Assembly (NCBI GenBank): GCA_964653985.1 | Contig: CAZZIC010000001.1 | Coordinates: 15,489 to 79,488, forward strand | Source: an uncultured archaeon | GTDB taxonomy: Archaea > Asgardarchaeota > Lokiarchaeia > Sigyniarchaeales > SOKP01 | DNA: 64,000 nucleotides | Reading direction: 5' to 3' | In this document: in pieces, positions 6,585 to 26,000 of the stretch | How the letters are laid out: each line of letters opens with the position of its first letter | Numbering within the stretch: the first letter of the stretch is position 1 | Made by a program: the position numbers and the translations under genes | Notes under the pieces: model-generated | Told to the model about the DNA's origin: nothing | Database searches by the model: none | What the model saw: the letters and a program-made list of their open reading frames with translations, nothing else

Positions 6585-6586
6585 AA

Positions 6587-8125: not shown

Positions 8126-8998
8126 ATGTCGGAGGAAAAACAAGATCCCCCAAAAATTTTATTACCTAAACAGGGAGAAATAAGGGCACTGGAGGAACCT
8201 GAAAAATCTTTCTCGATTCAGGAAATATTTGAAAACATTACACCACATACACCTAAAATCAAACTAGTGAGTAATTTAGGCTCAAAAAAAATTTCCACAT
8301 TATTTAACATCTCAGCTTTGACAAAAAAAAAGAAATATGGCAGTAAAGAATCAATTAAACTGGGAGAAAATGACGAAGAATTAATTGATGCCACTTTATC
8401 ATTAACAGAAAATATAATCTTCTATCCTAAAATTGAATTCAGAGGAGAAGGGAAGTTAACAAAAGCTCAGAAGCAAAAAGGAATTGAGAAAAAAATTATT
8501 ATCAAATCAGTACATGGGGGGATTAGGAAATCGGTACCGGTCGATGGTGAAGGAAATTATGTTAAAAAGAAAAATATTGAATATTATAAAAGAGAAGATG
8601 AAGAGAGTAAACTTCCGGTTTACCCTTCAAACTTATATAGTGATAAAAATCCGAGGAAAATAACTATAAATGAAGTAGCGGAAATTGAGAGAATTTTAGA
8701 CACTAATATTCAATCTAGGTACATCTTGTTTCCTGTTGAAAGTCAGGATGATTCCGAATTTAAAAATCTGGTAAATAATATGGAAGCGGTAGGACCGCAT
8801 TTCTTAACATTCAAATTCAATTATCGAAAAGGGACAAACCAAAAGGATGCATTTCTTGTCTTAATTGAGGAAGACGGTAATGAATATATCTTGATGTGCG
8901 TTGGGTTACAAATGGATATTAAATGGGTTGGTTTGGAAGAGTTGCCCGAAGAGAATCTTTTTTTCTTCGAGAAGTTGGACCTAGATTTAAAAATCTAG
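8126..8998 (+). CDS. hypothetical protein (candidate Ku-like beta-barrel core, unverified)
   Basis: This 290-aa ORF is the first gene of the plus arm that ends in the DNA ligase. The segment KITINEVAEIERILDTNIQSRYILFPVES..EFKNLVNNMEAVGPHFLTFKFNYRKG...AFLVLIEEDGNEYILMCVGL loosely follows the bacterial Ku core pattern by eye only. The protein has an acidic-aromatic C-terminus. Confidence 0.55.
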   Translation: MSEEKQDPPKILLPKQGEIRALEEPEKSFSIQEIFENITPHTPKIKLVSNLGSKKISTLFNISALTKKKKYGSKESIKLGENDEELIDATLSLTENIIFYPKIEFRGEGKLTKAQKQKGIEKKIIIKSVHGGIRKSVPVDGEGNYVKKKNIEYYKREDEESKLPVYPSNLYSDKNPRKITINEVAEIERILDTNIQSRYILFPVESQDDSEFKNLVNNMEAVGPHFLTFKFNYRKGTNQKDAFLVLIEEDGNEYILMCVGLQMDIKWVGLEELPEENLFFFEKLDLDLKI

Positions 8999-9054
8999 TT
9001 ATTCTAAAAAGTTACGAGTTTATCTTAATATTGAATTAAAGAGAGTCGAAAAAG

Positions 9055-9804
9055 ATGAGTTTACAATTCGGCAATTATAACTTCGAGATTTTTATAACAG
9101 ACGAAGATCCCAGATTAAATACAAGAGTTAGAGCAATTCCCAGATTTAAACTTATAAAAAAAATAAAAAAAACTCTTGATGGAAAAGAAGTCCATAATAC
9201 AAAGAGAGCTATTGTACCGTATGATAATGAATTTATGGAAAGATTAAGATACGATGAAAATTTACTTCAAGAATTTTTAGAAAATGATAATGAAATTGAT
9301 TTAGAACTAACAGGAAAAAGAATTTCAAGAACATTTCGAATCTTATTAAACCAAGACAACGAATTATGCTATAACTTTACAGAATATCAAATTCAAAAAG
9401 ATCGACAAGGGAGAATTATTCCATGTGTAGAATGTGGGGAACTTTTTTGCAAACACCAAGTAAAGAAAAGAACAAAATCCAATATAAACGAGGATCAAAA
9501 ACCGGTTATATTCATCAAACCGATGATGCTAGATAAATTGGAAGCAATAAAAAGATGGTCATTTGGGCGAAGTTATCAACTCAGGCATGTTGATGGATTA
9601 ACATTTAAATTTTGCTATGAATTATCCCAAAAACTTCATAAATCAGGTAAAATGGTATTAATGGCACCCATAGAAGAGAATACGCCCCAGAAAATCGTTC
9701 TTAGAAACAATACAGCTCCATTTTATGCTTGGTTAGAGGGTCGAATAAATGGGGACAAATATGCTTTGATATTACATCGTGCTACTCTAAAAATTGTGGA
9801 TTGA
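9055..9804 (+). CDS. hypothetical protein (second candidate Ku-like protein, unverified)
   Basis: This 249-aa ORF starts 56 nt after the previous gene. The segment IFIKPMMLDKLEAIKRWSFGRSYQLRHVDGLTFKFCYELSQKLHKSGKMVLMAPIEENTPQKIVLR resembles the Ku stretch (..IDPIYF.+SYYL.P...G.+AY.LL..AL...GK.aia......+..LaaLR) by eye. An internal CxxC...C..H is also present. Confidence 0.55.
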   Translation: MSLQFGNYNFEIFITDEDPRLNTRVRAIPRFKLIKKIKKTLDGKEVHNTKRAIVPYDNEFMERLRYDENLLQEFLENDNEIDLELTGKRISRTFRILLNQDNELCYNFTEYQIQKDRQGRIIPCVECGELFCKHQVKKRTKSNINEDQKPVIFIKPMMLDKLEAIKRWSFGRSYQLRHVDGLTFKFCYELSQKLHKSGKMVLMAPIEENTPQKIVLRNNTAPFYAWLEGRINGDKYALILHRATLKIVD

Positions 9805-9855
9805 AATAGATTATAATCTTTAATGGAAAATTAAGCAAAAAAGATTAAAGAAAAA

Positions 9856-11784
9856 ATGAAAAAAATCATAACTTTAGCAGAAAGAAAATTTGGAAAGGAA
9901 TTTGGAAACTACTGGCTGGGTCCTACATTCAGTGCTAATAAAAGAATTCAACAAATTACGGATGATTACAAGCTTGCTTTCCTTAAAAAATTCTATTCTC
10001 TTCCTCCCTCTTTTATAAACCCTATTAACAAAGATAAAACGTATCGAAAACTACCCGATGATCTTATAGTATCAGTTAAACGAGATGGAAGTTATTTCAC
10101 CTATGTTTATGATATACATTCCGAACCAGTTTCAGTTTTTTGTAACTCGCCAAATGCCAGGATTTTATATAATCTCCCCGTGAATCGAGAACTGGAGCAA
10201 AGAATTCCAAAAATAAACGAAAATAAATTAGGTTCGTTGAAGGAGCTTTTAAATGAGATCATCGGTGAAAACATATTCAAGAACTTTAAGACTATTCACA
10301 AAATTGTTTTAGCAGGAGAGCTTTTTTCTAATGTTGAAAAAGAGAACGATAGACCACGAGTTTATGATTTAGTTAAGGTAATGTTTAATCCTGAAAGTTT
10401 AAAAGAATTAGAAGCGATTCATTTTGACATTTTTGATATTATTTCTATTAATGGTAATAGTCTGATAACACTTCCCTACAAAAAACGCCTCGATATTTGT
10501 AAACTTTTGTTTTCCATCAATGATGAAAATAAAGCTAATATAATTGAACATAAAACTAAGGTTAAATCTAAAGACACTTACAAATTATATGAGCGATGGG
10601 TTCAGAAAAAGCATCACGAAGGAATAGTGATTCATACTAAATATAATATGTCCTATAAAATAAAGCCAATATTCAATATTGATGCGGTGATTATTGGGTT
10701 TGTTGAATTACTGAAAGAAAGTCTTCTTGAAGGTGATGAGGGTGCTATTAGTTCGTTATTGTTAGCATTAATGCATGAAGATGGAAGTTTTCAAGAGTTA
10801 TGCCGTATGGGAGGAGGTCTTTCTTATGAACAAAGAGTTGAGTTATTTAACCTTCTAAAGCAAGATGTTGTAAAATCTAGTTTTAGAGCCTCAAAACAAG
10901 ATGGAAGGGCATTTAGATTTGTAATTCCGAAATATATTGTCCAAGTTGATTATATGGACTACATTATAGAAGATAGTAAGGGTAAATCCATTCAGAGAAT
11001 GAATTTGAAATTTGAGGATAACAAATGGATTCCCATAAAAAGCATACCTTTTGTTTCTCTTATATCTCCCCGCTATGGTGTAATGCGAAGTGAGATAGAT
11101 AAAGAAAAATATCCTTCTCTTGCATATGTAAATCCAAAAGAGGTTAGATATGAGGATGTTAAATGTAAGCAGATACTCGATTTAGTTCCGATTGACCTTA
11201 TTGGATCCCAAGAGGTTTTAGAAAATCTACCTAAATCTAAAATATTATTTAAAGTTGTATTTGAAGGTGAATGGACAGGTTATAAATCGGGAAGAAAAAT
11301 AATTCTCTGGCAAACAAATAAAAAGGATTTAAATCCTTCTTTTCCAAATTATATTGTTTACTATGGAAATTATAGTTATACTCGACGGAGTCCTTTAGAA
11401 CAAAGAATTTATCCATTCAACAGTTTAGATAAGGCAATTGATCATATAAACTGGGTTTTTAAAAGACCTGATAGTAATCAAAAAGGTTTAATCAACAAAA
11501 GTGGTAATGGTTTAAAGAGATCAATAAATACACCTCCATTTGAGCTATTAATCGATAAAGGACATAAAGAAAAAATTATTAGTGGATTAGATTTTCTTAT
11601 AAAAAAAATTTTATTCAATGAAGAGTTTAAAGTAGATTTGGATTTGGATGATTTGGATTTTGATTTTGAAGAATTAGAAATGGAGGAACAAGAGAATCAA
11701 GAAATAGATAATGAAGTAGAAAAAGATTTATTAGATAAAATGTTAGAAACTGATCTAGATGATATTGACTTCGAAGATCTTTAA
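9856..11784 (+). CDS. ATP-dependent DNA ligase (minimal nucleotidyltransferase + OB core) with ~220-aa C-terminal extension and acidic tail
   Basis: Motif I is SVKRDGSY (KxDG at nt 10078-10089), motif III VLAGELFS, motif IIIa FDIFDIISING followed by LPYKKRLDICKLLF, motif IV HHEGIVIHT and motif V SYKIKP...DAVIIGF. The OB domain starts at SSLLLALMHEDGSFQELCRMGGGLS, and a motif VI-like LISPRYGVMRSEIDKEK follows. Confidence 0.75.
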   Translation: MKKIITLAERKFGKEFGNYWLGPTFSANKRIQQITDDYKLAFLKKFYSLPPSFINPINKDKTYRKLPDDLIVSVKRDGSYFTYVYDIHSEPVSVFCNSPNARILYNLPVNRELEQRIPKINENKLGSLKELLNEIIGENIFKNFKTIHKIVLAGELFSNVEKENDRPRVYDLVKVMFNPESLKELEAIHFDIFDIISINGNSLITLPYKKRLDICKLLFSINDENKANIIEHKTKVKSKDTYKLYERWVQKKHHEGIVIHTKYNMSYKIKPIFNIDAVIIGFVELLKESLLEGDEGAISSLLLALMHEDGSFQELCRMGGGLSYEQRVELFNLLKQDVVKSSFRASKQDGRAFRFVIPKYIVQVDYMDYIIEDSKGKSIQRMNLKFEDNKWIPIKSIPFVSLISPRYGVMRSEIDKEKYPSLAYVNPKEVRYEDVKCKQILDLVPIDLIGSQEVLENLPKSKILFKVVFEGEWTGYKSGRKIILWQTNKKDLNPSFPNYIVYYGNYSYTRRSPLEQRIYPFNSLDKAIDHINWVFKRPDSNQKGLINKSGNGLKRSINTPPFELLIDKGHKEKIISGLDFLIKKILFNEEFKVDLDLDDLDFDFEELEMEEQENQEIDNEVEKDLLDKMLETDLDDIDFEDL

Positions 11785-14337
11785 TTAACTGATTCTTTCA
11801 AGGACTTCCATCAATAAAGAGGGAATTTCCATAATCTTCGTGATATATACAATCTCCCCTTTTGTTTTTTCTAAAATCCATTGGGCATATCTTTTCGAAT
11901 AAGATCTTGTATTAACACCTAATAGAAATTGAACACGTTGGTTAATATATTCTTCTAACTGACTTTTTATTTGACTTTCACTCTCGCTGAAGGCACAATC
12001 TGTTAAAAGAAAGCAGAGTTTCCTTTCTGTACGGGTTTTTTGAAGTTCTTTTGCTCCCCATTCTAAAGCTGCTTTAACTTGAGTCCCTCCCCGAGCCCTC
12101 AAATCAAGTAACTCATCTGCCACATCCTCAAGATCTCGTTGATCTCCGAATTCTTTGACTATGTGAGTATTAGACTCAAAAAAACAGATTGCTACTTCAT
12201 CAGCTTTTAAGGTACCTATTAAAACCATAACTGCTATGGAACATGCGGCAAGTTTCATCCCACTCATTGAACCCGAGATATCAAGTAAAAAACAAATTGA
12301 AACCCTTCCTTTTTCAGTTCTTTGTACTAATAAATCCTCAGATGTAATCATTTCAATTGATTTTCCTTGCATTAAAATATTCTCAATGGTGGCATCAATA
12401 TTTATTAAGTCCATATCATCTCCAAGAATAAATGGTCTCAATTGAGTAGTTGGAATTAAACCCTTTTCTCCACTACCTCTTTGATTAGAAATAATATTCA
12501 TAGCAATTTTGATTAGAGCATCCCTACATAAACCTTTAACAAAACCTTTTAGATGGCTGGGGACTTGGGTTCGGTGATAAAACCACTGGATGAGTAAATT
12601 TTCTCCTGGTCCTGCATTTAAGGATTCCGCTACCCTTTTCTGAGCCCTTTTCCCTTGCTTTCCAGCAGCCTGGAAGGTTTTTCCCATATCATGATGAGAA
12701 AGTGCTCCAAGTCCAGGATAATTATTTTTTTCAAGAGCAATATCTATTAATTCATTTATTTGAGGTCCAGTTAATTTAATCTTTTTCATAATTTTCGCAT
12801 ATCTTTCAAAATTACCAATGTTTTGCTGGTACATTGATTTTAAAAGTTTATAATTACCACCAAATATTTCAATGATAATATCCTCTTTGACACCAAGTTT
12901 TTTACCAATTTTTATAACTTCTCCTTGGTTTAGGGGGACCAAATTAGAAACTAAAGATCTGAGGGAATTTTTAAACTGATCCTTATCATGTGCTGATTCT
13001 AAACCTTTTATCCCCGATTTCAAGGCGTTTCCAACAAAGGTTCCTTGGCAAGATTCGAATTCACTTTGATCTGATAAATTCATTAATTCATTCGCTAAGT
13101 CTGTGAGATTATAACTTGCTTGTCCGTTATTATTAAGATAATCCATTATTTTTCTTTCAATAAGTTCATTAAGCATTTTTCGCCATTGTGGATGTTCCGC
13201 CTGGGCTTGAAAAAGCTCCGATAAAGAAGGAGATGGATTTTGTCTTGTCCATTCTTCAAATAGTTTATTCGTTAAATTGGAGTTAAACTTTTTATCCAAG
13301 GCTCTGGAAATGTCAAATGAAGAATCAGCATCTTTCTGAACGCTATTTGAAAATACTTTATTTTGATCAAATTGAGGGATATGATTTAAAACGTTAGAAA
13401 CCTCATTTAAATCAATAATGTTATCAATTCTATCAATTAAACCGTTCGCAAGAGTGTTGATTTGAGATTTTTCCATACCTACTTGATCGAGATAATTTAA
13501 TGAGCGTGCTGAGGCTCCAACCTCTTCTGAATTCATTACATTATTAAGAGAATTCTTGAAATCCATATCACCCATCAAATATTGAGCTGTAAGATTAATC
13601 CATGGCGTTTTTGCTTGATCTAATATATCTTCCCCCCAATTTAAGTTTGTTGCTGATTGAATATCTGAAGGAGATAAATTATTTATCTCCCGTAGGATTG
13701 TTTGATGACAGTCTTTTTTTAGATCGTTGATATCTTTTATCCCTTGTTCTAAAACATATTTATAATTATCTCTTTGCTCTATAATATCAACTAAACTTCG
13801 AAATGGTTCTTTATCTTGATTTGCTTGGTCATATAGATTATTAACAAAATCCATTAAACCGGAAAATTCTTCCATAGCTTTATCAATTAATTCTTCCGTA
13901 TCCAAATTACTGATATCTAGTTTAGAATCCATTAAATCTAAAAACTCTTCCATAAAATCAGTTTTTTTATCGCTTGTTGCTTCAATATCTTCTTTTTTTT
14001 GTCTCTTTCCAGCTTTATTTTTATCTTTCTTTTCAAAAATAATGTTGAATGCAATTTCTTGGGCAATTGATTGATCCTCTATAGGTGTAGTCAGTACAGC
14101 AGCATTAATAAAGTCGTCAGGAATGAGATTATGCTTACGGTAGTACATTGCAGTTATTAATTTAGGTATCGCTATTGCTTGGCGAGTACTAGGGATGTTT
14201 TTAAGTCTGCCTTTATTCCTTCGCATTTGATAAATAAATTCAATCGTAAATGAGATAGGATTCCACTCTAAGATTTTGTTATTTGCAAAATCTCCGATAT
14301 TACCTTTATCTATTCTTCTCATCCTGTTTTTACTCAT
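11785..14337 (-). CDS. large vWA-domain protein (CbbO/NorD/ViaA-like partner of the adjacent MoxR ATPase)
   Basis: The C-terminal vWA domain has a MIDAS motif DISGS (nt 12268-12282) inside VSICFLLDISGSMSG, followed by GGTQVKAAL and LLTDCAF. The ~650-aa helical N-region is of unknown family. The gene starts 23 nt after the MoxR gene. Confidence 0.75.
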   Translation of the reverse strand: MSKNRMRRIDKGNIGDFANNKILEWNPISFTIEFIYQMRRNKGRLKNIPSTRQAIAIPKLITAMYYRKHNLIPDDFINAAVLTTPIEDQSIAQEIAFNIIFEKKDKNKAGKRQKKEDIEATSDKKTDFMEEFLDLMDSKLDISNLDTEELIDKAMEEFSGLMDFVNNLYDQANQDKEPFRSLVDIIEQRDNYKYVLEQGIKDINDLKKDCHQTILREINNLSPSDIQSATNLNWGEDILDQAKTPWINLTAQYLMGDMDFKNSLNNVMNSEEVGASARSLNYLDQVGMEKSQINTLANGLIDRIDNIIDLNEVSNVLNHIPQFDQNKVFSNSVQKDADSSFDISRALDKKFNSNLTNKLFEEWTRQNPSPSLSELFQAQAEHPQWRKMLNELIERKIMDYLNNNGQASYNLTDLANELMNLSDQSEFESCQGTFVGNALKSGIKGLESAHDKDQFKNSLRSLVSNLVPLNQGEVIKIGKKLGVKEDIIIEIFGGNYKLLKSMYQQNIGNFERYAKIMKKIKLTGPQINELIDIALEKNNYPGLGALSHHDMGKTFQAAGKQGKRAQKRVAESLNAGPGENLLIQWFYHRTQVPSHLKGFVKGLCRDALIKIAMNIISNQRGSGEKGLIPTTQLRPFILGDDMDLINIDATIENILMQGKSIEMITSEDLLVQRTEKGRVSICFLLDISGSMSGMKLAACSIAVMVLIGTLKADEVAICFFESNTHIVKEFGDQRDLEDVADELLDLRARGGTQVKAALEWGAKELQKTRTERKLCFLLTDCAFSESESQIKSQLEEYINQRVQFLLGVNTRSYSKRYAQWILEKTKGEIVYITKIMEIPSLLMEVLERIS

Positions 14338-14360
14338 TCATCAATATTTAAGTATTCTAT

Positions 14361-15272
14361 TTAAGAAACTCCAACAACCTTTGTCAAAATGTGCTTAATA
14401 AACTTCTTAACATCTTTTCCGGGTCTAAGTTCTATTGAATCTTGCAAAATTAGTTTTGCAGATTCAGCGATTAATTTATTATCCACACTAGTATTGAGTC
14501 GATTTGCTCTTTCTGAAACAAATCTAGCAAGTCCTATACTTGTCCTCAAACTGGGTGGCCGTTCAACTTCAGGAGCGTCCCGGCATTGGATCATTAATTC
14601 GATGATCTTTTCTTGCGTTAATGCTGAAAGATTATATTCTGGACAATTTGAAACCATTATCTTCTGTTCTAATGACTTCGGGGGATAACTTAGATGGATC
14701 CAAACTTTTATTCTATCTTTTATAGCAGAGGGTAATCGTCTGGTTCCTTTCAATTCGGTAGGATTCATCGCCGCAATTACATAAAATTCATCTTTTGTCT
14801 TCAACCATGTCTTCAATTGAGGAATATACAAGCGACGCTCCTCCATAGCATCTAACATACTATTTAGAACATACTCATCTCCTCTATTCAATTCATTTGC
14901 TAAGAAGATACCTCCTTTGAGAGCAGCCAAAGAAAAAGGACCCGGGATATATGAGTCTGGTGAAAATCCGTATTTAAAGACCAATGTAGGATCGAATGAA
15001 CCGATCAGTGTGGAAGGCCGTATTAAATCAGAAAAAGTAACCCAATGAAACTCCCTTTCAAGATCGTATGCAAATTTACGACACAATGCTGTTTTACCAC
15101 ATCCCACGGGTCCAACTAAGCCAACAAATAAACCCGCATTATAAGCATCTAGCATTGCTTCATAAGCGTACTTATATTGACCTTCTAGAACTAAATTAAT
15201 ATCCTCGCGGATATCTTCTATTTTACTTTCTTGAATCAATTTTGAAAATTCTTTAACTTGTTGCTTGGACAT
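14361..15272 (-). CDS. MoxR/CbbQ/NorQ-family AAA+ ATPase
   Basis: Walker A is GPVGCGKT. The Walker B region IFLANELNRGDEYVLNSMLDAMEERR has Asn where MoxR proteins have Asp. Sensor 1 and the Arg finger read VIAAMNPTELKGTRRLPSAIKDRI. The 303-aa length is typical of this family. Confidence 0.8.
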   Translation of the reverse strand: MSKQQVKEFSKLIQESKIEDIREDINLVLEGQYKYAYEAMLDAYNAGLFVGLVGPVGCGKTALCRKFAYDLEREFHWVTFSDLIRPSTLIGSFDPTLVFKYGFSPDSYIPGPFSLAALKGGIFLANELNRGDEYVLNSMLDAMEERRLYIPQLKTWLKTKDEFYVIAAMNPTELKGTRRLPSAIKDRIKVWIHLSYPPKSLEQKIMVSNCPEYNLSALTQEKIIELMIQCRDAPEVERPPSLRTSIGLARFVSERANRLNTSVDNKLIAESAKLILQDSIELRPGKDVKKFIKHILTKVVGVS

Positions 15273-15323
15273 TTATTATACACTTTTTTAAATTATTTTT
15301 ATTAGGAATTTATTTATAAGGTT

Positions 15324-15851
15324 TCAATTTTCGAAAAATAATTCCGTTTCTGTAGGTTGAACAACTATTGGAACCTCATAATTTAATTTTTCAATCGCTT
15401 TTACAACTCTGTTGTATTCTTCTTCTTCTAAAACTGTTCTTCGGCCGAATTTTAACCTCTTCATAATGTAATCTCCAAAATATGTTTCCTTAAGATCTTT
15501 CACATAATACTTTTTGCCTTTCTTCTTTACTTGTGAATTTTTTAATTCTTTAATTCTCTTTAATAGAATTATTTTAGCGAGAGGTTTCCAAGATTTCTCT
15601 TGTTTTAAAGCTTCTAAATCAAAATCTCTATGATTTAATTTATCATCTTTTACCATTAAACTAATATTCTTTAAAAACGCAGTAAAATATTTTCTTTTAA
15701 AATTTTCAATGGAACTGGTATCTGTTATTTGATTTGTAAGCTTTGAAAATAGATCCTCAATGATTTTTTCATTCGTGTTTTCATAATATTTTTGAATCTG
15801 TTTTTTTAAGTTAACAGTAAATATATCACACTCATTGTTCTTATTTTCCAA
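15324..15851 (-). CDS. hypothetical protein (175 aa)
   Basis: The TTG start lies 6 nt after an AGGTGA (complement of 15858-15863). It sits 18 nt downstream of the Rad50-like gene and 51 nt upstream of the MoxR gene. I recognise no motif. The C-terminus is ...TETELFFEN. Confidence 0.5.
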   Translation of the reverse strand: MENKNNECDIFTVNLKKQIQKYYENTNEKIIEDLFSKLTNQITDTSSIENFKRKYFTAFLKNISLMVKDDKLNHRDFDLEALKQEKSWKPLAKIILLKRIKELKNSQVKKKGKKYYVKDLKETYFGDYIMKRLKFGRRTVLEEEEYNRVVKAIEKLNYEVPIVVQPTETELFFEN

Positions 15852-15869
15852 TCCTATTCACCTTTTTTT

Positions 15870-18389
15870 TTATTTTTTTAGTTCAATTTTATTATTACAG
15901 ACAATCTTGTCTACATCTTGATGAGTTATGAGTATTACTTGAGTATTTTCCGCCATTGATGAAATATTGGATAAGAGATTTTTTCTATTATTTATATCAA
16001 TGAATTCGGTTGGTTCATCAATTAAAAGAAAAGATGATACATTGATGAGTTCACTAAGTGAAAATTTATAAGAAAGTCCTAATAAAAGTTTATGACCTCC
16101 ACCCTCATATACCCATGCTGGATAATATGTATTAAGACTCATTCCTTTCGGAGTAACAGACAACGAATAATCATCGCTATCAATAAAAATTTTCTCAAAT
16201 TCTTCTTCCGAGGATAAAACCTTATGATAATCTAAAATTCTTTCTTCCAAAGCATTCGAAATATTGTCTCGAATTATTCCTTGGGTCTTTTTAAAAACGT
16301 TCTGAAAATATCTATATTTTTCTGCTAGCTTTTCTTTAAGGAGAAGTATTTGTATTTTTTTTTCATTAACTGCTATTTGCTTGTCTAATCTTTTTATTTT
16401 GTCTTTAATATCTTCCAAATCTTTTTTCAATTGAACTTTTTGCTCTTCCAAATGCTTTAAACTAGATGAAATTTCAGACATTTTCGAAATTATTAATTCA
16501 TTAAAATCCTCTTTCAATTTAGTTGCCGCCTTAAGAGATAAATCGCTTTTAAAGTTATCAATTTGATTTAAAACTACCTTTAAGGGCTTTATAACGCCGT
16601 CATCCTCTCCTAAAAGCTTAATGTATTTATCTAATTCCGTTTTAACAGTATTTAGTAAGATAATGAGATTCCTTTTACCTTCTGTAAGATTTTCTTCAGC
16701 ATCTTTTTTATCTTTTTGAATCTCTTTCATTTTTGAGTTTTGTTTCTCTACTTGCTTGACTGATGAGTTTAAATCATTTAATTCTTTCTCTTTTTTTCGA
16801 TGTTCTTCCCTTAAATCGTTTAAAGCTGTTTTTTTTTCTTGAAGAAGCTTTTCATATTTTTCAATTTTGGTAGTTACATGCTGAATTTGTTCATTTAAAT
16901 CTTTCTCAGAAAGATTATTGATTTTTTCCTCTAAGTCGTTTATTTGTTCAAATAGATTTTTCTTCTTTAAATATTCTTGATAACTCTGTTTTTCTTTTTC
17001 TCTCTGTTTTAATAACTTCTTAGATATATCATTAAGATTTTTTTCATTAGAATCTATATTAGAATCAAAATCCTTTAACTTTTTTTTACATTCCTTGATT
17101 TCTTCTGTTATCTTGGATGCATCGATCGGTGCTCCACAATATTCACATTCTTGATTATCTTTATTTGATTTTCTCCTCTCTAAAATACCGGAGATATTTC
17201 CCTTTTCCCGTTCAATAGTTCTAAAGAAGGTTTGTAATTCCTTCTGTGCTTTTTCTAGCTCATTTAAGTTTTCATTAGTTTTTAAATATTCATCTTTAAA
17301 GTGTTCTATTTTTTTCGCAAGATTCTCTTTCGTTTCAAAAGGTTCAAGAAGTGATTCCTTTTCTTTTAAAATATTCTTTTCTTGTTTCTTTAGAGCATCT
17401 AATTCAACTTTTTTATTTTTGTTTTCTTGAATTTTTTGTTGTAATTTTGAGATTTCTTTCTCTTCATTTTTGATTTTATCATTAGAATCTTCAATAATTT
17501 TATTCAAAGAATTAAAATTTTTCTTTAAATCGTCAACTGATCCGAATTTATTCTTTATTTCTTCGAGTTCTTTTTTTATCATCTCAGTTTTAATATTAGC
17601 TTCTTCAACTGTTTTTTGAATTTCTTCTAAAGAATTAACAGCATCACCGATTTGTTCTGAATATTTCTTGAATTCTTTTAATTGTTCTAATCGATCAGAT
17701 TCTTTTTTAATCTCATCTTTTATGGTGTTTTCTTTATCCTCTTTTTCTTTTAGCTTCTCTGTTTGCTCTTGTTTTTCTTTCTTTGCCTGCTTTATTATCG
17801 CTTCAAATGTATCAAGAACCTTCACCTCTTTTTCGAAATCTAATGCTCGACTCCCAAACATCTTTGCTAAGGCAGTAGCAGATGTTATCCCAAATACTAT
17901 GTCTAATTTTTTATCTCCCGTTAATATATTGGAGATTTCACCTTGGGAAAAATGGACTCCAGTTTCAAAAAATCTCTTTGACATTCCTAATATCTCTAAT
18001 AACTTTAAAGCTAAATCCTCTTCATGGTTCCCAAAATCAGAAGCTAAAATATATTTTTCTTCACTTTCTGAAACCAATTTTTTCAAAGTAAAGAATCCAG
18101 TTGCTGATCTCGTTTTTCCCTTTAATTTATGCATTCTTTGGAGTTTGTATTTAGATCCATCCTTTCCTTTAAAGATGAGCTCTACTCCAACAGAATTTTG
18201 TTTGAATTTGGCTAATTGAGCGATTTTCTTAAATCCTCCAACGCCCCCAAAAAGACAGTATTCAATGGCATAAAAAATTGTTGTTTTCCCCGCATTATTT
18301 CTTCCATAGATCAAATTAAACGTTGGGTCAAATTGTAAAAGAATATCTTCATGTCTCCTAAAATTTTTCAACCTAATTGATTCAATCAC
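15870..18389 (-). CDS. Rad50/SbcC-like SMC-family ATPase, paralogue 2 (CxxC zinc hook, degenerate signature motif)
   Basis: Walker A is GRNNAGKTT and the Q-loop is HFSQGE. A long coiled coil carries the central hook CEYC (nt 17136-17147). EGGGHK replaces the LSGGE signature. Walker B is FLLIDEPTEFID and the H-loop is ILITHQD. The longest ORF extends to a TTG at 18461. The GTG at 18389, 9 nt after GAGGAGG (complement of 18399-18405), gives the typical Rad50 N-terminus (V/M)IESIRLKNFRRH. Confidence 0.8.
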   Translation of the reverse strand: MIESIRLKNFRRHEDILLQFDPTFNLIYGRNNAGKTTIFYAIEYCLFGGVGGFKKIAQLAKFKQNSVGVELIFKGKDGSKYKLQRMHKLKGKTRSATGFFTLKKLVSESEEKYILASDFGNHEEDLALKLLEILGMSKRFFETGVHFSQGEISNILTGDKKLDIVFGITSATALAKMFGSRALDFEKEVKVLDTFEAIIKQAKKEKQEQTEKLKEKEDKENTIKDEIKKESDRLEQLKEFKKYSEQIGDAVNSLEEIQKTVEEANIKTEMIKKELEEIKNKFGSVDDLKKNFNSLNKIIEDSNDKIKNEEKEISKLQQKIQENKNKKVELDALKKQEKNILKEKESLLEPFETKENLAKKIEHFKDEYLKTNENLNELEKAQKELQTFFRTIEREKGNISGILERRKSNKDNQECEYCGAPIDASKITEEIKECKKKLKDFDSNIDSNEKNLNDISKKLLKQREKEKQSYQEYLKKKNLFEQINDLEEKINNLSEKDLNEQIQHVTTKIEKYEKLLQEKKTALNDLREEHRKKEKELNDLNSSVKQVEKQNSKMKEIQKDKKDAEENLTEGKRNLIILLNTVKTELDKYIKLLGEDDGVIKPLKVVLNQIDNFKSDLSLKAATKLKEDFNELIISKMSEISSSLKHLEEQKVQLKKDLEDIKDKIKRLDKQIAVNEKKIQILLLKEKLAEKYRYFQNVFKKTQGIIRDNISNALEERILDYHKVLSSEEEFEKIFIDSDDYSLSVTPKGMSLNTYYPAWVYEGGGHKLLLGLSYKFSLSELINVSSFLLIDEPTEFIDINNRKNLLSNISSMAENTQVILITHQDVDKIVCNNKIELKK

Positions 18390-18636
18390 TTTGTTTTTCC
18401 TCCTCTTTAGCTGGGAAATCACCCTCAATTTCTTTAATATCAGATTCAAACATTTCTTCAATTCTAGAAGCTAATTTTTCCCTCGCTTTTTTAGCCAATT
18501 TAAAAGTTTTGGTCAAATTTTCTTCATCATCAAATAAATAGTTTGTAAATTCAAAAAGGGAAACCAGGTTTTCTTTTTCATTTTCTTCTAATTCAAACTT
18601 CTCTAGAATATCTGAAATGCTAAATTTAAATTCCAT
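18382..18636 (-). CDS. small acidic protein (84 aa), unknown function
   Basis: This ATG-started ORF lies between the two Rad50-like genes. Its last 8 nt overlap the proposed GTG start of the downstream gene (GTGATTGA). Its composition is helical and acidic. Confidence 0.5.
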   Translation of the reverse strand: MEFKFSISDILEKFELEENEKENLVSLFEFTNYLFDDEENLTKTFKLAKKAREKLASRIEEMFESDIKEIEGDFPAKEEEKQSD

Positions 18637-18720
18637 CTTTTTTACCCTATCTCTTTATTTTTGTCTTAATTTGATTAATTTAATTATTATATCATTTTAA
18701 AGATTTTTTAATATTTAATT

Positions 18721-21432
18721 TCATACATTAGTAAGATAACTTACCTGTGTGGATTCGTTATTATCTTTTGAAAGTTTAATAACATACTCGCTGTGACGCT
18801 TAAAGGAATCATCATGGGAAATGACAAAAAGTTGGTTGAATCCCTCTATATTATTTATATATTTGCTAAGATTATTTCTTGATGTCTCATCTAGGTTTGT
18901 TGTCGGTTCATCAAAAATTGCAAACTTTGCCGAAGTGAGTGTCTTTAAAATGGCTAATCTTACTGCTAATGCAGCTGCCATTTTTTCTCCTCCTGATAAT
19001 CTGATAAACTTCTTTTTGCTTTTTGCTTTTAAAATCTCAATTTCATAGTTTTGATCCCACTGTAATGAGGTATTTTGATCTCCTCTAATGTTACGATATA
19101 TTTTTGAAGCTTGTCTATTTACTTTCTGAATTAATTGTTGTCTCATTTTTGGTTTAAAATCTTTTAACCAATTCCGTATTTTACTTACAAATTTTTTTTC
19201 GGCTTCTAATTTTAGCTCAATTTCTTTAAATTCATCTAGTTTTTTCTCTTTTGATTCTAAATTCTCGAGTTCTTCATTAATTTCGTCTAATCTCTGCTGC
19301 AAATTACGCAAATTTTCTTCTAACTTAATTATATTCCGGTTTTTTTCATCGAATTCTTCTTGTAATTTTTTATGGGTGACTTCATTATATTTAGCAGATA
19401 ATTCTTTTAACTCCTCTAAGCTCTCAGAATACTGTTTTACCAAATTCTCTAATCTTTGCTTGGCTCTATTAACTTTTTCTTTTCTTTGTTTTAATTTTTC
19501 TGCTTCGTTTATATTTTTCTGATATTGGTTATATGCTTTTTCTAAATTATTTAATTTCTTTCTTATCGCCGATAATTTATCTGGAATATTTCCTAACTTA
19601 GCTATTTTGCTTTTTAGATTTTCCTTCTTAGATTCTACTTCTTCTACTTCTACCTTTAGTTCTTCTAACTGATTTTCTATATCCTTGAGATCTTCTACTT
19701 TTCTTTTATGAATAAGATAATCATCATGAAAAGGTTGTAATGCTTCTCGCTTTTCCATAAGCTTTTTTTTAGAGTTAATCAATTGAGATTTTTCTGTAAT
19801 TTTACTATTAATTTCATTTATTTCTTCTTTCATAGACTTATATTGTTTTTCAAACTCTTCTAATTTTATAGCATTCCGTTTTAGATGTTCTATTTCATCC
19901 TGAAAGTCCTCCTTTTTTTTTAATTTCTCACTGATTTCATTCAAATCCCTTCTCTTAGATTTTAACTCTTCATTCTTTAAGATAATATCTTGATTAAAAT
20001 AATCTATATCAAACTCGCCATCTAGCATATTTTTACATTGTTGATCCGTAAATGGACATAGTTTTTGTTCTACTTTATTTTGATGATTTTGAAAGAATGA
20101 TATATCATTTTTTATACTTGAAATTTCTAATGCTAATGTGTTTTTCTTTTGTTCAAGTGTTTTGATATTTTCCAGCTTCTCTTTTAATTTTGGTAAGTTT
20201 TCTACTTCTTTTTTTATAGTATTTATATTTTTTTTAAGGGATGATACTCGTTCTTTTTTTTTATTAAGTCTCGACTCTGCGGCTTTAATAACTGCGATTT
20301 GTTCATCCAATTTTTTGATCTTAGATTCTAATTTTAAAAATCCTTCATATTTTGGTTCAATTTCTTTTATAATTTTTGAGGAATTCTTTGCTTCATTTAA
20401 CTTTTCCTTCTTATTGGAATATTTATTTTTTATATTCTGATATTTTTGATTCATCTCATTAAGTTTTTCCTTTAATCTACTTAGTTCTTCGCTTTCTTTA
20501 ATTAATTCCTCTTTCATTTCAGAATTCTTGAGGTATTGTTGGTAGTCATCTTTTGTATCGTTCACAACTTCTTTAGCGTGGCTAGACTCTTTTAATTGCT
20601 GCTGAAACATCACTAGATTTTGTTCTTCATTCTTCTTTTTTACTTCTAATTGCCTATACGTAGATGTTATCTCATCTAACTTTCCTTTTGTTGATTTGAA
20701 GTCATCCAATTCATTTTTGATTTTCTGCTTTTCCCTTCTGAATTCGTTTAATTTTTTTGATTTATTATCAATCTCTTTGGAAACTTCCTTTTTGTACCTT
20801 ACCTTAGATTCTTTTTCTTTAGTTTCCCCAGTTAATTCACTGATTTGATTTTGGATAGTTACTAATTCATCTCTAAAACTCCTTTCAATTACACCTAAAT
20901 TATCCCAATATTCTTCATATGTGTCTAGCTGAAAGATCTCATCAAAATATTCCTTCCTCTCCTTAGGACTCCTTAAAAAGATGTTAATTATCATTCCTTG
21001 AGGAATCCCAATAGCAGTATTAAACAAGGTCTGGAGATCTATATTATTTTTTACTCCAAGTTGATGTTTTATCCAAGATCTAAATTTTGAAATAGTCTCA
21101 ATCTGGGGAGAAACTTCCTTTCCTTTCTCATCTTTTACCTCAATATCAGTTTTTCCGATTTTTCGCTTAATTGTGTAGATTTTATTATTTAATCCATTTA
21201 TCCATATTTTAATAGATCCATATTCGGGCTTATCATTTTCAACTGATCGAACATAATCTGAATGTTGAGTTTTTGATTTTAAGAAATCGAACAAAACATA
21301 CCCGATCATTTCCAAAACGGTTGATTTACCAGTTCCGTTGTTGCCATAAAGGACATTTAGCCCTTCATTAAACGTTATTGTAGTATCTTTATGTGTTTTA
21401 ACATTTTCGATTTGAATTTTTCTAATTAGCAT
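18721..21432 (-). CDS. Rad50/SbcC-family ATPase, paralogue 1 (canonical signature, atypical hook)
   Basis: Walker A is GNNGTGKST and the Q-loop is GIPQG. A ~600-aa coiled coil carries the central CPFTDQQC (nt 20035-20058). The signature is LSGGEK, Walker B is FAIFDEPTTNLD and the H-loop is VISHD. The longest ORF reaches 21477 through an ATG run that is the out-of-frame reading of the Mre11 Asp-codon run. The ATG at 21432 lies 8 nt after GAGGTGA and gives MLIRKIQIENVKTH. Confidence 0.85.
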   Translation of the reverse strand: MLIRKIQIENVKTHKDTTITFNEGLNVLYGNNGTGKSTVLEMIGYVLFDFLKSKTQHSDYVRSVENDKPEYGSIKIWINGLNNKIYTIKRKIGKTDIEVKDEKGKEVSPQIETISKFRSWIKHQLGVKNNIDLQTLFNTAIGIPQGMIINIFLRSPKERKEYFDEIFQLDTYEEYWDNLGVIERSFRDELVTIQNQISELTGETKEKESKVRYKKEVSKEIDNKSKKLNEFRREKQKIKNELDDFKSTKGKLDEITSTYRQLEVKKKNEEQNLVMFQQQLKESSHAKEVVNDTKDDYQQYLKNSEMKEELIKESEELSRLKEKLNEMNQKYQNIKNKYSNKKEKLNEAKNSSKIIKEIEPKYEGFLKLESKIKKLDEQIAVIKAAESRLNKKKERVSSLKKNINTIKKEVENLPKLKEKLENIKTLEQKKNTLALEISSIKNDISFFQNHQNKVEQKLCPFTDQQCKNMLDGEFDIDYFNQDIILKNEELKSKRRDLNEISEKLKKKEDFQDEIEHLKRNAIKLEEFEKQYKSMKEEINEINSKITEKSQLINSKKKLMEKREALQPFHDDYLIHKRKVEDLKDIENQLEELKVEVEEVESKKENLKSKIAKLGNIPDKLSAIRKKLNNLEKAYNQYQKNINEAEKLKQRKEKVNRAKQRLENLVKQYSESLEELKELSAKYNEVTHKKLQEEFDEKNRNIIKLEENLRNLQQRLDEINEELENLESKEKKLDEFKEIELKLEAEKKFVSKIRNWLKDFKPKMRQQLIQKVNRQASKIYRNIRGDQNTSLQWDQNYEIEILKAKSKKKFIRLSGGEKMAAALAVRLAILKTLTSAKFAIFDEPTTNLDETSRNNLSKYINNIEGFNQLFVISHDDSFKRHSEYVIKLSKDNNESTQVSYLTNV

Positions 21433-21440
21433 TTTATTTT

Positions 21441-21447
21441 TCACCTC
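21441..21447 (-). promoter_or_regulatory. Shine-Dalgarno-like site (GAGGTGA) that contains the Mre11 stop codon, 8 nt upstream of the Rad50 ATG
   Basis: The minus strand reads GAGGTGAaaaataaaATG. The TGA (21446-21448) is the Mre11 stop. Confidence 0.6.
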
Positions 21448-23041
21448 AGATATTTGTATCTTCATCATCATCATCAATTATACTATCAATATCAAAATCT
21501 TCACCTTCTGCATCTAAAAGTTCTTTAAATTCGCCGAATTCTTGTGAGAAATCCTCTTCTTTCCAAGCTTCTTCTATAGAGATTTGTTTCGTTTGTTTTT
21601 TCTTCTTTTTCTTTTTCTTCGTTTTTTTAACTTTTGGTTTTTTCGAAGCTTTTTGATGTTTAACTATTTTGAGCATTTCATTTAAAATATCTTGGTTTAA
21701 ATTAAACCAATCCTCTAATTCAGTTTTAATTACATTATAATCAGCATTTTTGGTTAGTTTTCCCTTTAATTCATTTAAGATTAAATTAGTGATTTCTTTT
21801 TTGTAAGGTTTAAACTTTGCCTCGTTATCGATTGTAGATAAAAGAGCTTCTTTCTCGATTTTTTCAAAATTCCAATCATCCTCAATATCAAGCGAGTAAT
21901 TTTTTTCGGAATAAATTTGATTATTAAGTCGAAGACCTAGGATTTCAAAATTGTCGAAAATCCTATTTTTCAGTTCAGTCAAATCAATTTCCAATTCCGA
22001 ATACTCAATCCAACCTTTGATAAATATATATAAAACAGGAATATCCAAATTAGATAGATTAGTCTCATCTCCCGTTTTTTCGGGGACTCCTAATTTTCTT
22101 AGTCTAGAAATTACCATCTCTTGAGCTTCTTCGAAGGATTGTGATTCTGTGATATTAATAGAGGAGTAGGTTAGAAATCTTCTATTTGGAATAGAAAAAC
22201 GATTATCTGTACTTCCATTTTCACAAAGTATTGGTTGAGCAGTAAAGTTAAAGTTATCCTCTGGAAAAATGTTTACCAAATAAATACCTCGGTCATCCCC
22301 CAATTCAGTAATTTCATTAACTTCTAGGCTGCCAGGATTAAATATCCACGGATTATTCTCTGGTTTTTCATATTGTATATGAAAATGTCCTAGGGCTAGG
22401 TAATCTACTTTATCATGGAGTTCTTGTAGACTCTTTGTTAAAGGATATCCTTTTTTTCTTTTATCTTCCCCTTGGATTCCGAAGTGCATCATTAGAATGA
22501 CAAATTTTTCCTCCTCGTCAATTTCCTTCTCTATTAAAGGATATAAGTTAGGTGTCGAACTTCCAAAATAACTAATCCCATAAATTGTTGTATTACCGAT
22601 CTGTATTTTTCCCCCTCTATGCTCTCTATATGAATAGTCTTCAAAAATAATTCTATTCGCTGCTTTATCATATTTTCCTGAAAGTAAAATAATTAGCTCT
22701 AAATCTGCAAGTAATTTTAGCCATGTACGATCTGAAAAAAATGGGGTTTCATGATTTCCTTCAATACAAATTATCGGAATTTTTCTTTTTAAGCTTTCTT
22801 CACATTTTGATTGAAAATCTTTAATAGTTGTTATAATATTTCCTAACGTCGACGGATTCACTTTTCTCTCACTATCTATTAAATCCCCGCTAATTAAGAC
22901 GAAATTCACCTCTTCGTAAATTGCCTTGTTAAGCAACCATTCAAAAGCTTTAAAAAAATCATTATATCGTTGTTTTATTCCATATAAGGTTTTTCCTAAG
23001 TGAAGATCAGCAGCATGTATAAATTTAATATTTCCACTCAT
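21446..23041 (-). CDS. Mre11/SbcD-family calcineurin-like phosphoesterase (nuclease) with K-rich then acidic C-terminal tail
   Basis: The five phosphoesterase motifs are I IHAADLHLG, II LISGDLID, III IEGNHE, IV LMMHFG and V LALGHFH. The tail reads KKPKVKKTKKKKKKKKQTK ... DAEGEDFDIDSIIDDDDEDTNI. Confidence 0.85.
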   Translation of the reverse strand: MSGNIKFIHAADLHLGKTLYGIKQRYNDFFKAFEWLLNKAIYEEVNFVLISGDLIDSERKVNPSTLGNIITTIKDFQSKCEESLKRKIPIICIEGNHETPFFSDRTWLKLLADLELIILLSGKYDKAANRIIFEDYSYREHRGGKIQIGNTTIYGISYFGSSTPNLYPLIEKEIDEEEKFVILMMHFGIQGEDKRKKGYPLTKSLQELHDKVDYLALGHFHIQYEKPENNPWIFNPGSLEVNEITELGDDRGIYLVNIFPEDNFNFTAQPILCENGSTDNRFSIPNRRFLTYSSINITESQSFEEAQEMVISRLRKLGVPEKTGDETNLSNLDIPVLYIFIKGWIEYSELEIDLTELKNRIFDNFEILGLRLNNQIYSEKNYSLDIEDDWNFEKIEKEALLSTIDNEAKFKPYKKEITNLILNELKGKLTKNADYNVIKTELEDWFNLNQDILNEMLKIVKHQKASKKPKVKKTKKKKKKKKQTKQISIEEAWKEEDFSQEFGEFKELLDAEGEDFDIDSIIDDDDEDTNI

Positions 23042-23097: not shown

Positions 23098-26000
23098 CTA
23101 TTTTTTGTATCTTAATTTCACTTTTTGTAATAAATTTGTAGATTTATTTTTAATCTGAAGTGGGATCTCCCTATTACAATATTCTTTAACATACATATAG
23201 ATTTTTGATGAATATTTAAGGATTTCCCTCTCATCGGGTATATAATTTATGAATTTATTACTAGAAATAAAAATAAGCTTACTTTTGGCTCTAGAGGTTA
23301 ATACATTAAACCTGTTTAAATTATAAATAAATTCATCCTCCATTTGGAGTTTATCCTCATCAGATAACCCAATCGAGCAGATAATTAAATCCCTATCAGA
23401 GCCTTGAAACTTTTCAACCGAATATACAGTTTCCTTTAAAGCTTGCATTAATTTAGATTTTGATAATTTAGTAAAGGGCTCAAATAATTGAAAAATGTTT
23501 CGAATTATAGTCCTTCCTTGTGCATTATGTGGAGCTACCACACCAATCTGTTGCTGCCAAAAGGTATTCTCTTCTTGTACAGTTAATGGGCTAATCATTT
23601 CATAGAATCCCTTGACAATCTCTGCTACAATTTGAGCCTCAAAAAGACTGATTCCAATCTCAAATTTTTCAGAATGAATGATGGAGCATGCTACTCTACT
23701 AGGTTTCAAAACTTCCTTTATCCAAGATTGTTTAATATCATCTACGCTCCCTTTAAGAACTCTATTCGCATTTTCTTTATACGCCTTTAAATTATCATAA
23801 AGTCCCAATTTGGATGTAAATTCAACTATATCTTTATGGGAACGATAATTAACTTTTAACTGCTTACGCGATATCTCATGCCCCTCGACATAGTATCTAA
23901 AAATATTATCTAAAATAATTTCAAGATTTTTAGGTGGTTTTTTAACCCTTACAGGGGGAAGTTGATTATGATCTCCAACGACCACGACTTTAGTCAGGGA
24001 ATCGTCAATAATTTTGTTATCAACAAGGGTTATTTCTTTAATTGAATCCTTATTAGTAATCCGCTTTCTCGGATTCAAATTTTCAAGTTTTTCGATATTT
24101 ATTTTGGGTTTTTTAATGAATTGAAGACTAGCCATAAAATAATCTGCGGGAAGTTGACTTGCCTCATCAACACAAATTAGATCAAATGTAAAATCTTCGG
24201 AAACACGTTTAGGTAAATGATATAATTGATGAGCATTAGCAAAAATTATAAAATCATTTTTCAAGGATTCTTCTAATGGTTTAGTTTTCGTAATCGTATA
24301 AGATTCACCATTTAGCTTCCATGTGTCTCCGTCTCTTAATATATTATCCACATCTCTTAGGGTAGGATCCCTCCCTATCGGTTCCTTAGAGATAGAATGA
24401 ATAAAAACCATTTGGAGTCTAGAAGAAGGAGTAGGCTTATTCAATATGTTTTTACTCCTTCGAACCTTGTCGATTACCACTCGTAAAGCAGCGTAAGAAA
24501 ATGACGTAATTAGAATTCTTACATTTTTATTCTGTTTTTTTCGCCTTATAACAAATTCGTCTATCAAAGAAGCAATGGTCTGAGATTTACCGGTACCAGG
24601 AGGTCCTAGAATCGCTGAAATTATATTTTCAAGGGAATTTAGTATTGCTTCTTTTTGAGAGGTGTCTGGAATAGGTTTTATTTTCGAAATTAATTTTTCA
24701 TTGTTTATAGTTTTATTGACTTTCTTTAAAACAGAAGGAGCATATAGATATATTGAAGGCGTTGTAAAATTCCACTTTTCTGGCCATTTTAATTTAGGTT
24801 TACTCCTTAAATCCCATAAAAATGCCAACCGAGCTCCTAGCCATGATCTCCCGAAATGCTCTCTTTGAAGCAAGCCTCTACTCTTATTGTTATATAATTT
24901 ACTTGACCAAGCATCAGAGCTAATAGGATAAATATACCATTTTTGGGTATCTGGATTAAGACCTTCGCCTTTACATATTTCAATTACATTTGTAGTAGTG
25001 GGTTTTGTAGAGATTTTATTTCCTTTAATTGATTGTTCCCATTTTATCCTCTCAATATAGACAATCCACTTGTAAATTCTTTTATCAAGTTTTATTCCTC
25101 GTTTAGAATTGGGAATCAGTAAAACTCGATCACCCTCTTTTAATTTCATGTTACTTGAAAGTCCAATAAGATTAAAGGTATATTTTAAAGATTTTCCTTG
25201 TAATTTATGAATCTTCAAATCTCTTACTCGCGCTGAAATTAACTTTCCAATGCTAAAATCAGGAAACATGGTTCTGAAATATTCATCATCTTGCTGTTGA
25301 AGAGCACTATTTAATTTTGAAAACAAATACCATACATGAGCAATGTCATGATAATCAGAAGGTAAAATTGCACTTTTATAATCATGACGGCTGATAGTTC
25401 TTGCATTTTGGGATAAAGCAATATTTCCTTGTTTTTGAAAGCGAATACGCAAGCTGTCTATAACGTGTAATTTTAGGATTATTTGATTTTTGATAACATC
25501 TCTTTTCTTCTTTTTTTTGTTAGAATCTTCTTCTCTTAGATACAACAACCAAGAAGCTAAATCTAAATAGTTAAAATGAGGTACCCAATACATTCTTGTT
25601 TTGATCTCTAACTTATCAAAAAGCTTATTGGCGATACTATGCCAAGTATAGTTAATTACATCTGGAAAACCAATACAAGATTCCGCAAAACTCTGGATAT
25701 CAAACAGCTTTTTGTATTGATAAGGATTACTCACTTCTGTATCGGATGGCGTAAAATACATTAGAATTGCCTCATAAGCAGCTCTTGCTTCTATGTTATC
25801 GATTACTAAATCTAAATTTCTCTGAATCATATCTTGAAGATGATCTAATTGATTTCGAGACCAATAAAAAATACTTGTATCTGGTCCTATCTGGTACCTT
25901 CCGTATTTTCCATCGATATCAATAATTATATGATCTTCAATTATACTGCACATTTGAAGTATTAGATTCAACTTTTTAATCATCTTGATAGTGAGTTCTG

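Follow-up and report, generated by a model that had tools for sequence, protein, structure and literature searches.

Introduction

Pairs of a MoxR-type AAA+ ATPase and a protein with a von Willebrand factor A (vWA) domain are known for remodelling or metal insertion (on Rubisco, NO reductase and chelatases) and as the cores of conflict systems. In Midasin, CbbO and integrins, the client supplies an acidic residue that completes the metal of the vWA domain's metal ion-dependent adhesion site (MIDAS). The NorQD pair gives a view of the motor: a finger of the vWA protein enters the pore of the MoxR hexamer, and ATP drives a twisting of the adaptor linker (PMC13036017). Here, we describe a MoxR-vWA pair from a 64,000-nucleotide stretch of the genome of an uncultured archaeon of the Lokiarchaeia (the window; GenBank assembly GCA_964653985.1, contig CAZZIC010000001.1). 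This pair is the 3' end of a five-gene module encoding, in order, an 84-amino-acid (aa) protein, a Rad50-like ATPase, a 175-aa protein (p175), the MoxR ATPase and the vWA protein. The best explanation that we can offer, to which we give an even chance of being right, is that a MoxR hexamer and its MIDAS adaptor remodel the module's own Rad50-like, DNA-tethering complex.

Like NorQ-NorD, CbbQ-CbbO and RavA-ViaA, the module places the gene for an AAA_5-type, single-ring ATPase beside that for a protein whose C-terminus is a vWA domain with all of the MIDAS in place. Unlike them, it has no nor, cbb or frd/nuo clients, and the partner is instead a Rad50-like ATPase with two small proteins. Walker B carries N-E where theirs has D-E, and the adaptor is much larger (850 aa), with an N-terminal domain of its own and an alpha-solenoid. 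Midasin (Rea1/Mdn1) also combines AAA_5 domains with a linker that is flexible and charged and with a MIDAS domain at the C-terminus, which grips an acidic client residue. However, the six AAA domains of Midasin are fused in a single polypeptide, which works on pre-ribosomes, whereas here the ATPase is separate, has a single domain and is found in a DNA-related context.

On the side of the proposed client, the resemblance is to Rad50-Mre11/SbcCD, in which an ATP-binding cassette (ABC) ATPase head is likewise combined with a long coiled coil and the CxxC type of zinc hook. The differences are the lack of an Mre11/SbcD nuclease in the module, a GGGH signature, low NCBIfam scores and unrelated accessory subunits of 84 and 175 aa. 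A compact operon that is horizontally mobile and encodes an ATPase of the structural maintenance of chromosomes (SMC)/Rad50-like kind together with small accessory subunits is also found in Lamassu (ABC-3C) and Wadjet. Yet no LmuA-type effector, LmuC, JetA/B or JetD was detected in the module, and neither system has a MoxR-vWA pair. An assignment to Lamassu was rejected, as both Rad50 paralogues give only generic LmuB matches and PADLOC has no match for p175, the vWA protein or the other neighbours.

A further comparison is with the MoxR-vWA ternary conflict systems (Kaur et al. 2020, PMC7159879), in which the third component is VMAP, iSTAND, FtsH or a beta-propeller and effectors are fused to vWA. 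The module shares with them a MoxR-vWA chaperone core accompanied by further components, as well as lineages that include deltaproteobacteria/myxobacteria. Nevertheless, it was not placed among them, since Pfam scans of the module found no VMAP, iSTAND, FtsH, beta-propeller or effector domains. The same study (PMC7159879) makes no mention of an SMC, Rad50 or ABC ATPase partner.

The module is not covered by any model of Pfam, NCBIfam or PADLOC, and the five-gene set is apparently undescribed so far. A Rad50-like client would be a new type of partner for a MoxR-vWA remodeller within the literature searched. If the explanation is true, an external, ATP-driven remodeller joins the known controls of SMC-like DNA tethers, and a function is gained for a family annotated as 'ChlD', 'NorQ' or hypothetical. 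Biochemistry would also gain a compact system of five proteins, one bacterial version of which comes from a named and completely sequenced species (Sandaracinus amylolyticus).

A conserved five-gene module

The surroundings of vWA and MoxR homologues were collected (96 loci) and scored with iterated profiles of the window proteins. Wherever the sequence suffices, the same five genes stand in the same order on one strand. In particular, a vWA gene adjoins MoxR in all loci with sequence downstream of MoxR, with a gap of 23 nucleotides (nt) in the window. The Asgard carriers are Candidatus Lokiarchaeum ossiferum (complete genome), two Thorarchaeota genomes, two Thor-type metagenome contigs and one Heimdall-type contig, and the bacterial carriers are S. 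amylolyticus and about ten further contigs of high guanine-cytosine (GC) content (0.58-0.73). No orthologues were found in IMG/VR, the phage collection or the PLSDB plasmids, and none of the five Sandaracinus proteins falls into a specific NCBIfam family.

A first-pass annotation of the window had listed open reading frames (ORFs) of 850, 303 and 175 aa as the last genes of a minus-strand run. These lie where it placed them and are real genes, because all three have many homologues. It overlooked the conserved 84-aa gene (Table 1), whose stop is overlapped by the GTG start of the Rad50-like gene at 18389 (GTGATTGA). This GTG, giving 839 aa, is most likely the true start, rather than the TTG at 18461 (863 aa) of the ORF list. 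ATG/stop overlaps also join module genes in Sandaracinus and in the Heimdall-type locus. We count the translational coupling that such overlaps suggest in favour of the remodelling explanation.

Conservation is uneven within the module. MoxR is 76% identical to the window's protein in L. ossiferum, 68% in Thor and 56-60% in the Heimdall-type and bacterial loci, against 26-48% for the other four proteins across the same comparison.

Several loci depart from the common pattern or have unusual surroundings. One contig (L004/L005; Logan DRR438509/DRR438508) carries a Loki-like module whose MoxR is 78% identical to the window's, together with the full Mre11/Rad50/helicase/ligase set; its GC of 0.58 is unusually high for a close relative. 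In L. ossiferum (L021), an actin-family gene and a gene for a Hef/XPF-type helicase-nuclease (16983-17906, 21028-22446) lie less than 10 kb downstream of the module. Bathyarchaeia (L026, 7210-9576; L025) have, beside two thermosome genes, a MoxR whose Walker B reads FVAQE and a vWA gene that is short or split. A low-GC contig (L090, 9464-13100) holds MoxR and vWA alone, adjoining a large DNA methylase, and Methanosarcinales (L001, 10001-12433) have a vWA homologue without an adjacent MoxR.

This distribution bears on a less likely but serious alternative: that the module serves anti-invader defence. That is, the Rad50-like complex would sense foreign DNA or its ends (cf. Lamassu, Wadjet), MoxR-vWA would gate activation and, in Loki-type loci, helicase-Mre11-Rad50 would be the nuclease. 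The molecular mechanism is the same as in our best explanation and only the biological role differs. That the family is seldom met and patchily distributed (64 p175 clusters among 1.84 billion representatives) fits such a role, as do module flanks that vary between loci and the 56-63% MoxR identity between Asgard archaea and scattered bacteria, which implies horizontal transfer. On the other hand, the drop in identity from Loki to Thor roughly fits vertical descent, purifying selection on MoxR is unusually strong, and the flanks in L. ossiferum and Thor look housekeeping. Some neighbours would suit a defence locus: in L028 an Mrr-like endonuclease accompanied by a methyltransferase, in L090 a large N6/N4 methylase and in L008 a SIR2_2 protein. 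The window's helicase matches Mokosh MkoA (Table 1), and MoxR-vWA pairs are known conflict-system cores (PMC7159879). However, PADLOC returns only noise-level matches for MoxR and nothing for the vWA protein, p175 or Mre11, the five genes are without an effector domain, and the absence of orthologues from the virus, phage and plasmid collections also speaks against defence.

The MoxR ATPase

The 303-aa protein is a MoxR-type AAA+ ATPase, as first annotated, with Pfam matches to AAA_5 (9.5e-19; 68.2 bits, cut-off 22) and AAA_3 (1e-14; 55 bits, cut-off 27). Its nearest relatives by sequence are the Midasin AAA domains (the best PDB match), the MoxR structure 2r44, CbbQ and NorQ. Motif positions were assigned via alignments to Midasin and NorQ. 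Walker A (GPVGCGKT), sensor 1 (AAMNP), the Arg finger (AIKDR) and sensor 2 (SLRTS) are invariant in the family alignment.

Walker B departs from the hhhhDE pattern, reading IFLANE (14892-14909), with the catalytic Glu retained. The first-pass annotation had taken Asn126, in place of the usual Asp, as a possible sign of altered Mg/ATP handling. The residue is indeed present, but it is no local oddity: it is invariant in 26 of 26 diverse family members, bacteria included, and a sister clade (Bathyarchaeia, Methanolliviera) has Gln in its place. Judged from this alignment, Asn126 is a defining feature of the family that has been selected rather than a product of decay, because it is invariant across the family. 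Hydrolysis may be slowed, or may depend on metal in a different way, as a result. A family-wide Asp-to-Asn change in an otherwise intact and highly conserved AAA+ site amounts to a natural experiment in motor tuning.

Two more specific labels were rejected. 'NorQ' fails on curated cut-offs, and GvpN, although the best NCBIfam match (TIGR02640, 1.3e-16), scores 60.9 bits against a cut-off of 266.8, with no gvp genes in the window.

The vWA adaptor

The 850-aa protein proved to be a vWA protein with an intact MIDAS, as had been proposed, and Pfam (VWA_2/VWA) recognizes residues 681-812 only. Translation puts both its DISGS motif and the IFLANE of the ATPase at the positions first claimed. The MIDAS is complete, comprising D686, S688, S690, T752 (12082-12084) and D780 (11998-12000), all invariant.

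In the AlphaFold2 (AF2) model (mean predicted local distance difference test, pLDDT, 76), an N-terminal helical domain (residues 26-101) is followed by a disordered linker with acidic and basic charges (103-151), a confident all-alpha domain (about 150-620), a second linker that is disordered yet conserved in sequence (576-677) and the vWA domain (679-850). The N-terminal domain, residues 576-660, the MIDAS and a FES-x-TH loop are conserved across domains of life, and the central solenoid is variable. According to Foldseek, the vWA fold is nearest to that of NorD as seen in the NorQD structures of 2026, followed by the MIDAS domain of human MDN1 and BatB. When the vWA and p175 alignments were run as profiles against PDB sequences, the matches were vWA domains or noise only. 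The Joint Genome Institute (JGI) label 'ChlD' (Mg/Co chelatase D/T subunit) was rejected, as TIGR02442 gives 32.7 bits against 779 and no locus contains BchH/CobN.

The Rad50-like ATPase and the small proteins

The Rad50-like protein has a split ABC head, with a coiled coil, on which the Walker A and Walker B (DE) motifs and the Q-, D- and H-loops are all retained. Its signature motif is E/QGGGH, in contrast to the LSGGE of Rad50. The hook is CEYC (residues 439-442), and C-E/D-x-C-G is found in every archaeal and bacterial orthologue aligned. It does not qualify as a curated Rad50 (best NCBIfam Rad50 score 108 bits, cut-off 847), nor as an Mre11-partnered one: the module has no Mre11/SbcD, and the Mre11 that lies nearby in a Loki subset has its own Rad50. 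NCBIfam also gives weak matches to arcadin-4 and ASRP, far under the family cut-offs.

The gene for p175 starts with TTG 8 nt downstream of AGGTGA, and the conserved C-terminal half of the protein ends in L-P-x-x-V-x-P-T-x-T-E-x-F-F. There is no Pfam match: CTD1 is noise (E 0.019, 14.9 bits vs 25), and a JGI label 'Gam' on one homologue was not reproduced in Pfam. Likewise, the predicted fold has no counterpart in PDB or BFVD, where MutS-domain-I-like matches are non-significant (E 0.2-0.5). Two fusions are informative. In one, a BRCT domain (Pfam 29.8 bits, cut-off 21.3) precedes p175 inside an otherwise normal Loki-type module (P0179; L096, 1078-1959). In the other (P0198, a partial protein), p175 is fused to the C-terminal head of the Rad50-like ATPase, which we count as evidence that p175 is physically linked to the Rad50-like ATPase. 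The 84-aa protein carries an acidic motif, F-x-Q/N-Y/F-L-L/Y/F-D-D-D/E-x-N-L-T, of which LLDD(D/E)xNLT is invariant; its bacterial orthologue has no Pfam or NCBIfam match.

With an invariant CxxC hook in the proposed client, the pair could be imagined as a metal-insertion chaperone that inserts or exchanges the hook zinc, or another metal, in the Rad50-like protein, by analogy with NorQD (Fe), CoxDEF (Cu) and the chelatases. Rad50 hooks, however, are known to assemble without chaperones. The module also lacks anything resembling a metal-delivery protein. Even though many MoxR-vWA pairs insert metals (PMC13036017), we regard this as very improbable.

A non-DNA role has an equally slim chance. 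Here, the coiled-coil ATPase would be a structural or cytoskeletal scaffold (cf. arcadin-4, GvpN-type systems) assembled by MoxR-vWA, as might be suggested by the arcadin-4 and ASRP matches, by GvpN as the best NCBIfam match of MoxR and by the actin-like gene near the module in L. ossiferum. All of these scores are far under the family cut-offs, though, and DNA is indicated by the zinc hook, by the fusion to BRCT and by the linkage to Mre11 and ligase (see below).

Proposed mechanism

The sequences show which genes the module holds, their order, the motifs and the folds; for the remodelling of the module's own Rad50-like complex, the contacts, the client and the output are inferred. One vWA adaptor would dock on the MoxR hexamer, in the manner of NorQ-NorD, CbbQ-CbbO and Midasin. 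The MIDAS metal of the adaptor would grip an acidic residue of the client, and ATP-driven movement of the ring would pull on the adaptor linkers. The client is proposed to be a hook-linked dimer of the Rad50-like protein, with p175 on its head, plus the 84-aa protein. This complex would tether DNA, and the remodeller would load, reset or release it. A site of action on DNA, and probably at its ends, is indicated for the complex by the zinc hook, the BRCT fusion and the Loki-specific nuclease/helicase/ligase linkage. In the Lokiarchaeia subset that includes the window, the linked helicase-Mre11-Rad50 and the ligase would resect and reseal the tethered DNA ends.

Taken as a whole, and more tentatively, the module may represent a class of Rad50/SMC-family machine, not described before, that needs an AAA+-MIDAS remodeller of its own to go through its working cycle. 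In such a machine, a MoxR ring with an Asn-type Walker B would pull on a zinc-hook DNA tether via the vWA protein. The class would occur in Asgard archaea and a few bacterial lineages, and in Lokiarchaeia it would be wired to a helicase-Mre11-Rad50-ligase cluster for end joining or restriction.

Several points weigh against this picture. The assignment of the client is drawn from gene order and two fusions, one of them from the partial protein. Relatives of the MoxR-vWA pair without a Rad50-like gene exist (L090, L026), and because of them the pair, to judge from these loci, can work with other clients. An Asp-to-Asn change in Walker B could leave weak or no hydrolysis. Pfam scans found no recognisable nuclease or other effector domain in the core module. 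As for novelty, nothing was found in the literature on MoxR/vWA with Rad50, SMC, zinc hook or Asgard, with the ABC ATPase survey of Krishnan et al. 2020 (NAR 48:10045) outside this coverage; that survey might describe the neighbourhood.

Linkage to Mre11, Rad50, helicase and ligase in Lokiarchaeia

All-against-all clustering of ORFs gave only four recurrent flanking families (Mre11, helicase, a second Rad50 and ligase), in Loki-type loci only. Mre11, Rad50 and the helicase adjoin the module in 11 Loki-type loci, window included, in three arrangements: upstream on the same strand (window, L009, L010, L017, L030, L031, L042), downstream on the same strand (L044), and downstream and convergent together with a 249-aa protein and the ligase (L004, L013, L014). 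In L042, L047 and the window, the ligase and vWA genes converge. Within the flanks covered, the Mre11/canonical Rad50 cluster is absent from about 8 other non-redundant Loki-type loci, about half of that type. It does not adjoin the module in any of the four Thor-type, one Heimdall-type or ten bacterial loci.

The first-pass annotation had tied the pair to the Mre11/Rad50 machine. The tie to a Rad50-family protein stands, but the fixed partner is the Rad50-like paralogue with the 84- and 175-aa proteins. Because the census finds many modules without them, Mre11 and canonical Rad50 do not define the MoxR-vWA pair. Pairs thus occur mostly without canonical Mre11/Rad50 neighbours, although this no longer holds if the Rad50-like paralogue is counted. 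The linkage is real within Lokiarchaeia and probably functional in this one archaeal lineage.

It is therefore improbable that MoxR-vWA serves as chaperone to the DNA-end-processing machine of canonical Mre11/Rad50 (plus helicase) whose genes lie upstream. In the window, the genes do lie on the same strand with short gaps, and the 11 adjoining loci would suit this idea. Yet the proposed client is missing from about half of the Loki-type loci and from every Thor-type, Heimdall-type or bacterial one, whereas the paralogue is always present, and an 84-nt AT-rich gap (18637-18720) separates Rad50 from the 84-aa gene and the module. Modules without the upstream cluster imply that a promoter of their own is needed upstream of the 84-aa gene. 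Remodelling of the module's own Rad50-like complex remains our preferred explanation, and the helicase-Mre11-Rad50 and ligase cluster may be a separate end-joining or restriction system.

The cluster has features of its own. Helicase-Mre11-Rad50 (18721-27573, minus strand) and (290-aa)-249-aa-ligase (8126-11784, plus strand) stay together, and with the module, through three rearrangements in Lokiarchaeia (L004, L013, L042, L044). No HerA or NurA is found in the cluster. Its Rad50 (918 aa) has two cysteines only, C474 and C481, spaced as C-PFTDQQ-C (Cx6C) in place of the CxxC hook. The two paralogues are therefore reversed: one combines Cx6C with LSGGE, and the other a CxxC hook with the GGGH signature. 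The ligase (642 aa) gives weak adenylation and OB-domain matches, has no match to an N-terminal DNA-binding domain and carries a long acidic C-terminal tail. Its stop abuts that of the vWA gene with zero intergenic bases (11784/11785).

Organization of the window

On the minus strand, 27573-11785 is a tight run of genes for helicase, Mre11, Rad50, the 84-aa protein, the Rad50-like ATPase, p175, MoxR and the vWA protein (Table 1). The MoxR and vWA genes are thus directly downstream, on the same strand, of those for helicase, Mre11, Rad50 and the Rad50-like protein, as originally noted. The gap between the Rad50-like and 175-aa genes (15852-15869) is 18 nt long and holds only a Shine-Dalgarno-like GGTGA; it is therefore too short for a promoter or terminator. 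A sigma-70 promoter/terminator scan gave 35 sites against 32 expected, and the sigma-70 model is uninformative for an AT-rich archaeon.

Table 1. Features of the five-gene module and of the linked cluster (positions in the window)
Feature	Position	Strand	Basis or remark
84-aa helical protein, module gene 1	18382..18636	-	Conserved upstream of the Rad50-like gene in archaea and bacteria
Rad50-like ABC ATPase with coiled coil, 839 aa	15870..18389	-	Pfam AAA_23 1.1e-18; NCBIfam Rad50 3e-31
CxxC zinc hook (CEYC), coiled-coil apex	17136..17147	-	Translation; C-E/D-x-C-G in all aligned orthologues
175-aa protein, fold without match	15324..15851	-	AF2 pLDDT 88
MoxR-type AAA+ ATPase (AAA_5/AAA_3), 303 aa	14361..15272	-	Pfam
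Walker B Asn126 codon (IFLANE)	14895..14897	-	Translation; invariant in family alignment
vWA/MIDAS protein, 850 aa	11785..14337	-	Pfam, AF2 model, alignment
MIDAS DxSxS (DISGS)	12268..12282	-	Translation
Rad50 (918 aa), linked cluster, outside core module	18721..21477	-	NCBIfam Rad50 2.2e-73; canonical LSGGE
Mre11-like phosphoesterase (531 aa), linked cluster	21446..23041	-	Pfam/NCBIfam; adjoins module in 10 further Loki-type loci only
Superfamily 1 (SF1) Upf1-like helicase (1491 aa), linked cluster	23098..27573	-	Pfam AAA_11/AAA_12; PADLOC MkoA 1.3e-33
249-aa protein, linked cluster	9055..9804	+	Paired with ligase next to module also in L004, L013
Divergent ATP-dependent DNA ligase (642 aa), linked cluster	9856..11784	+	Convergent on vWA gene

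The window has a GC content of about 0.30 and no tRNA genes or Rfam families along its whole length; homologues of its proteins are named Promethearchaeota. Beyond the ligase side of the module, 5862-7591 (minus strand) encodes a Ras/Roc-family small GTPase (334 aa) and then a 240-aa protein, for which Pfam gives only a sub-threshold Apolipoprotein (helical-repeat) match. The GTPase gene is unrelated to the module finding, and such GTPases are typical of Asgard genomes.

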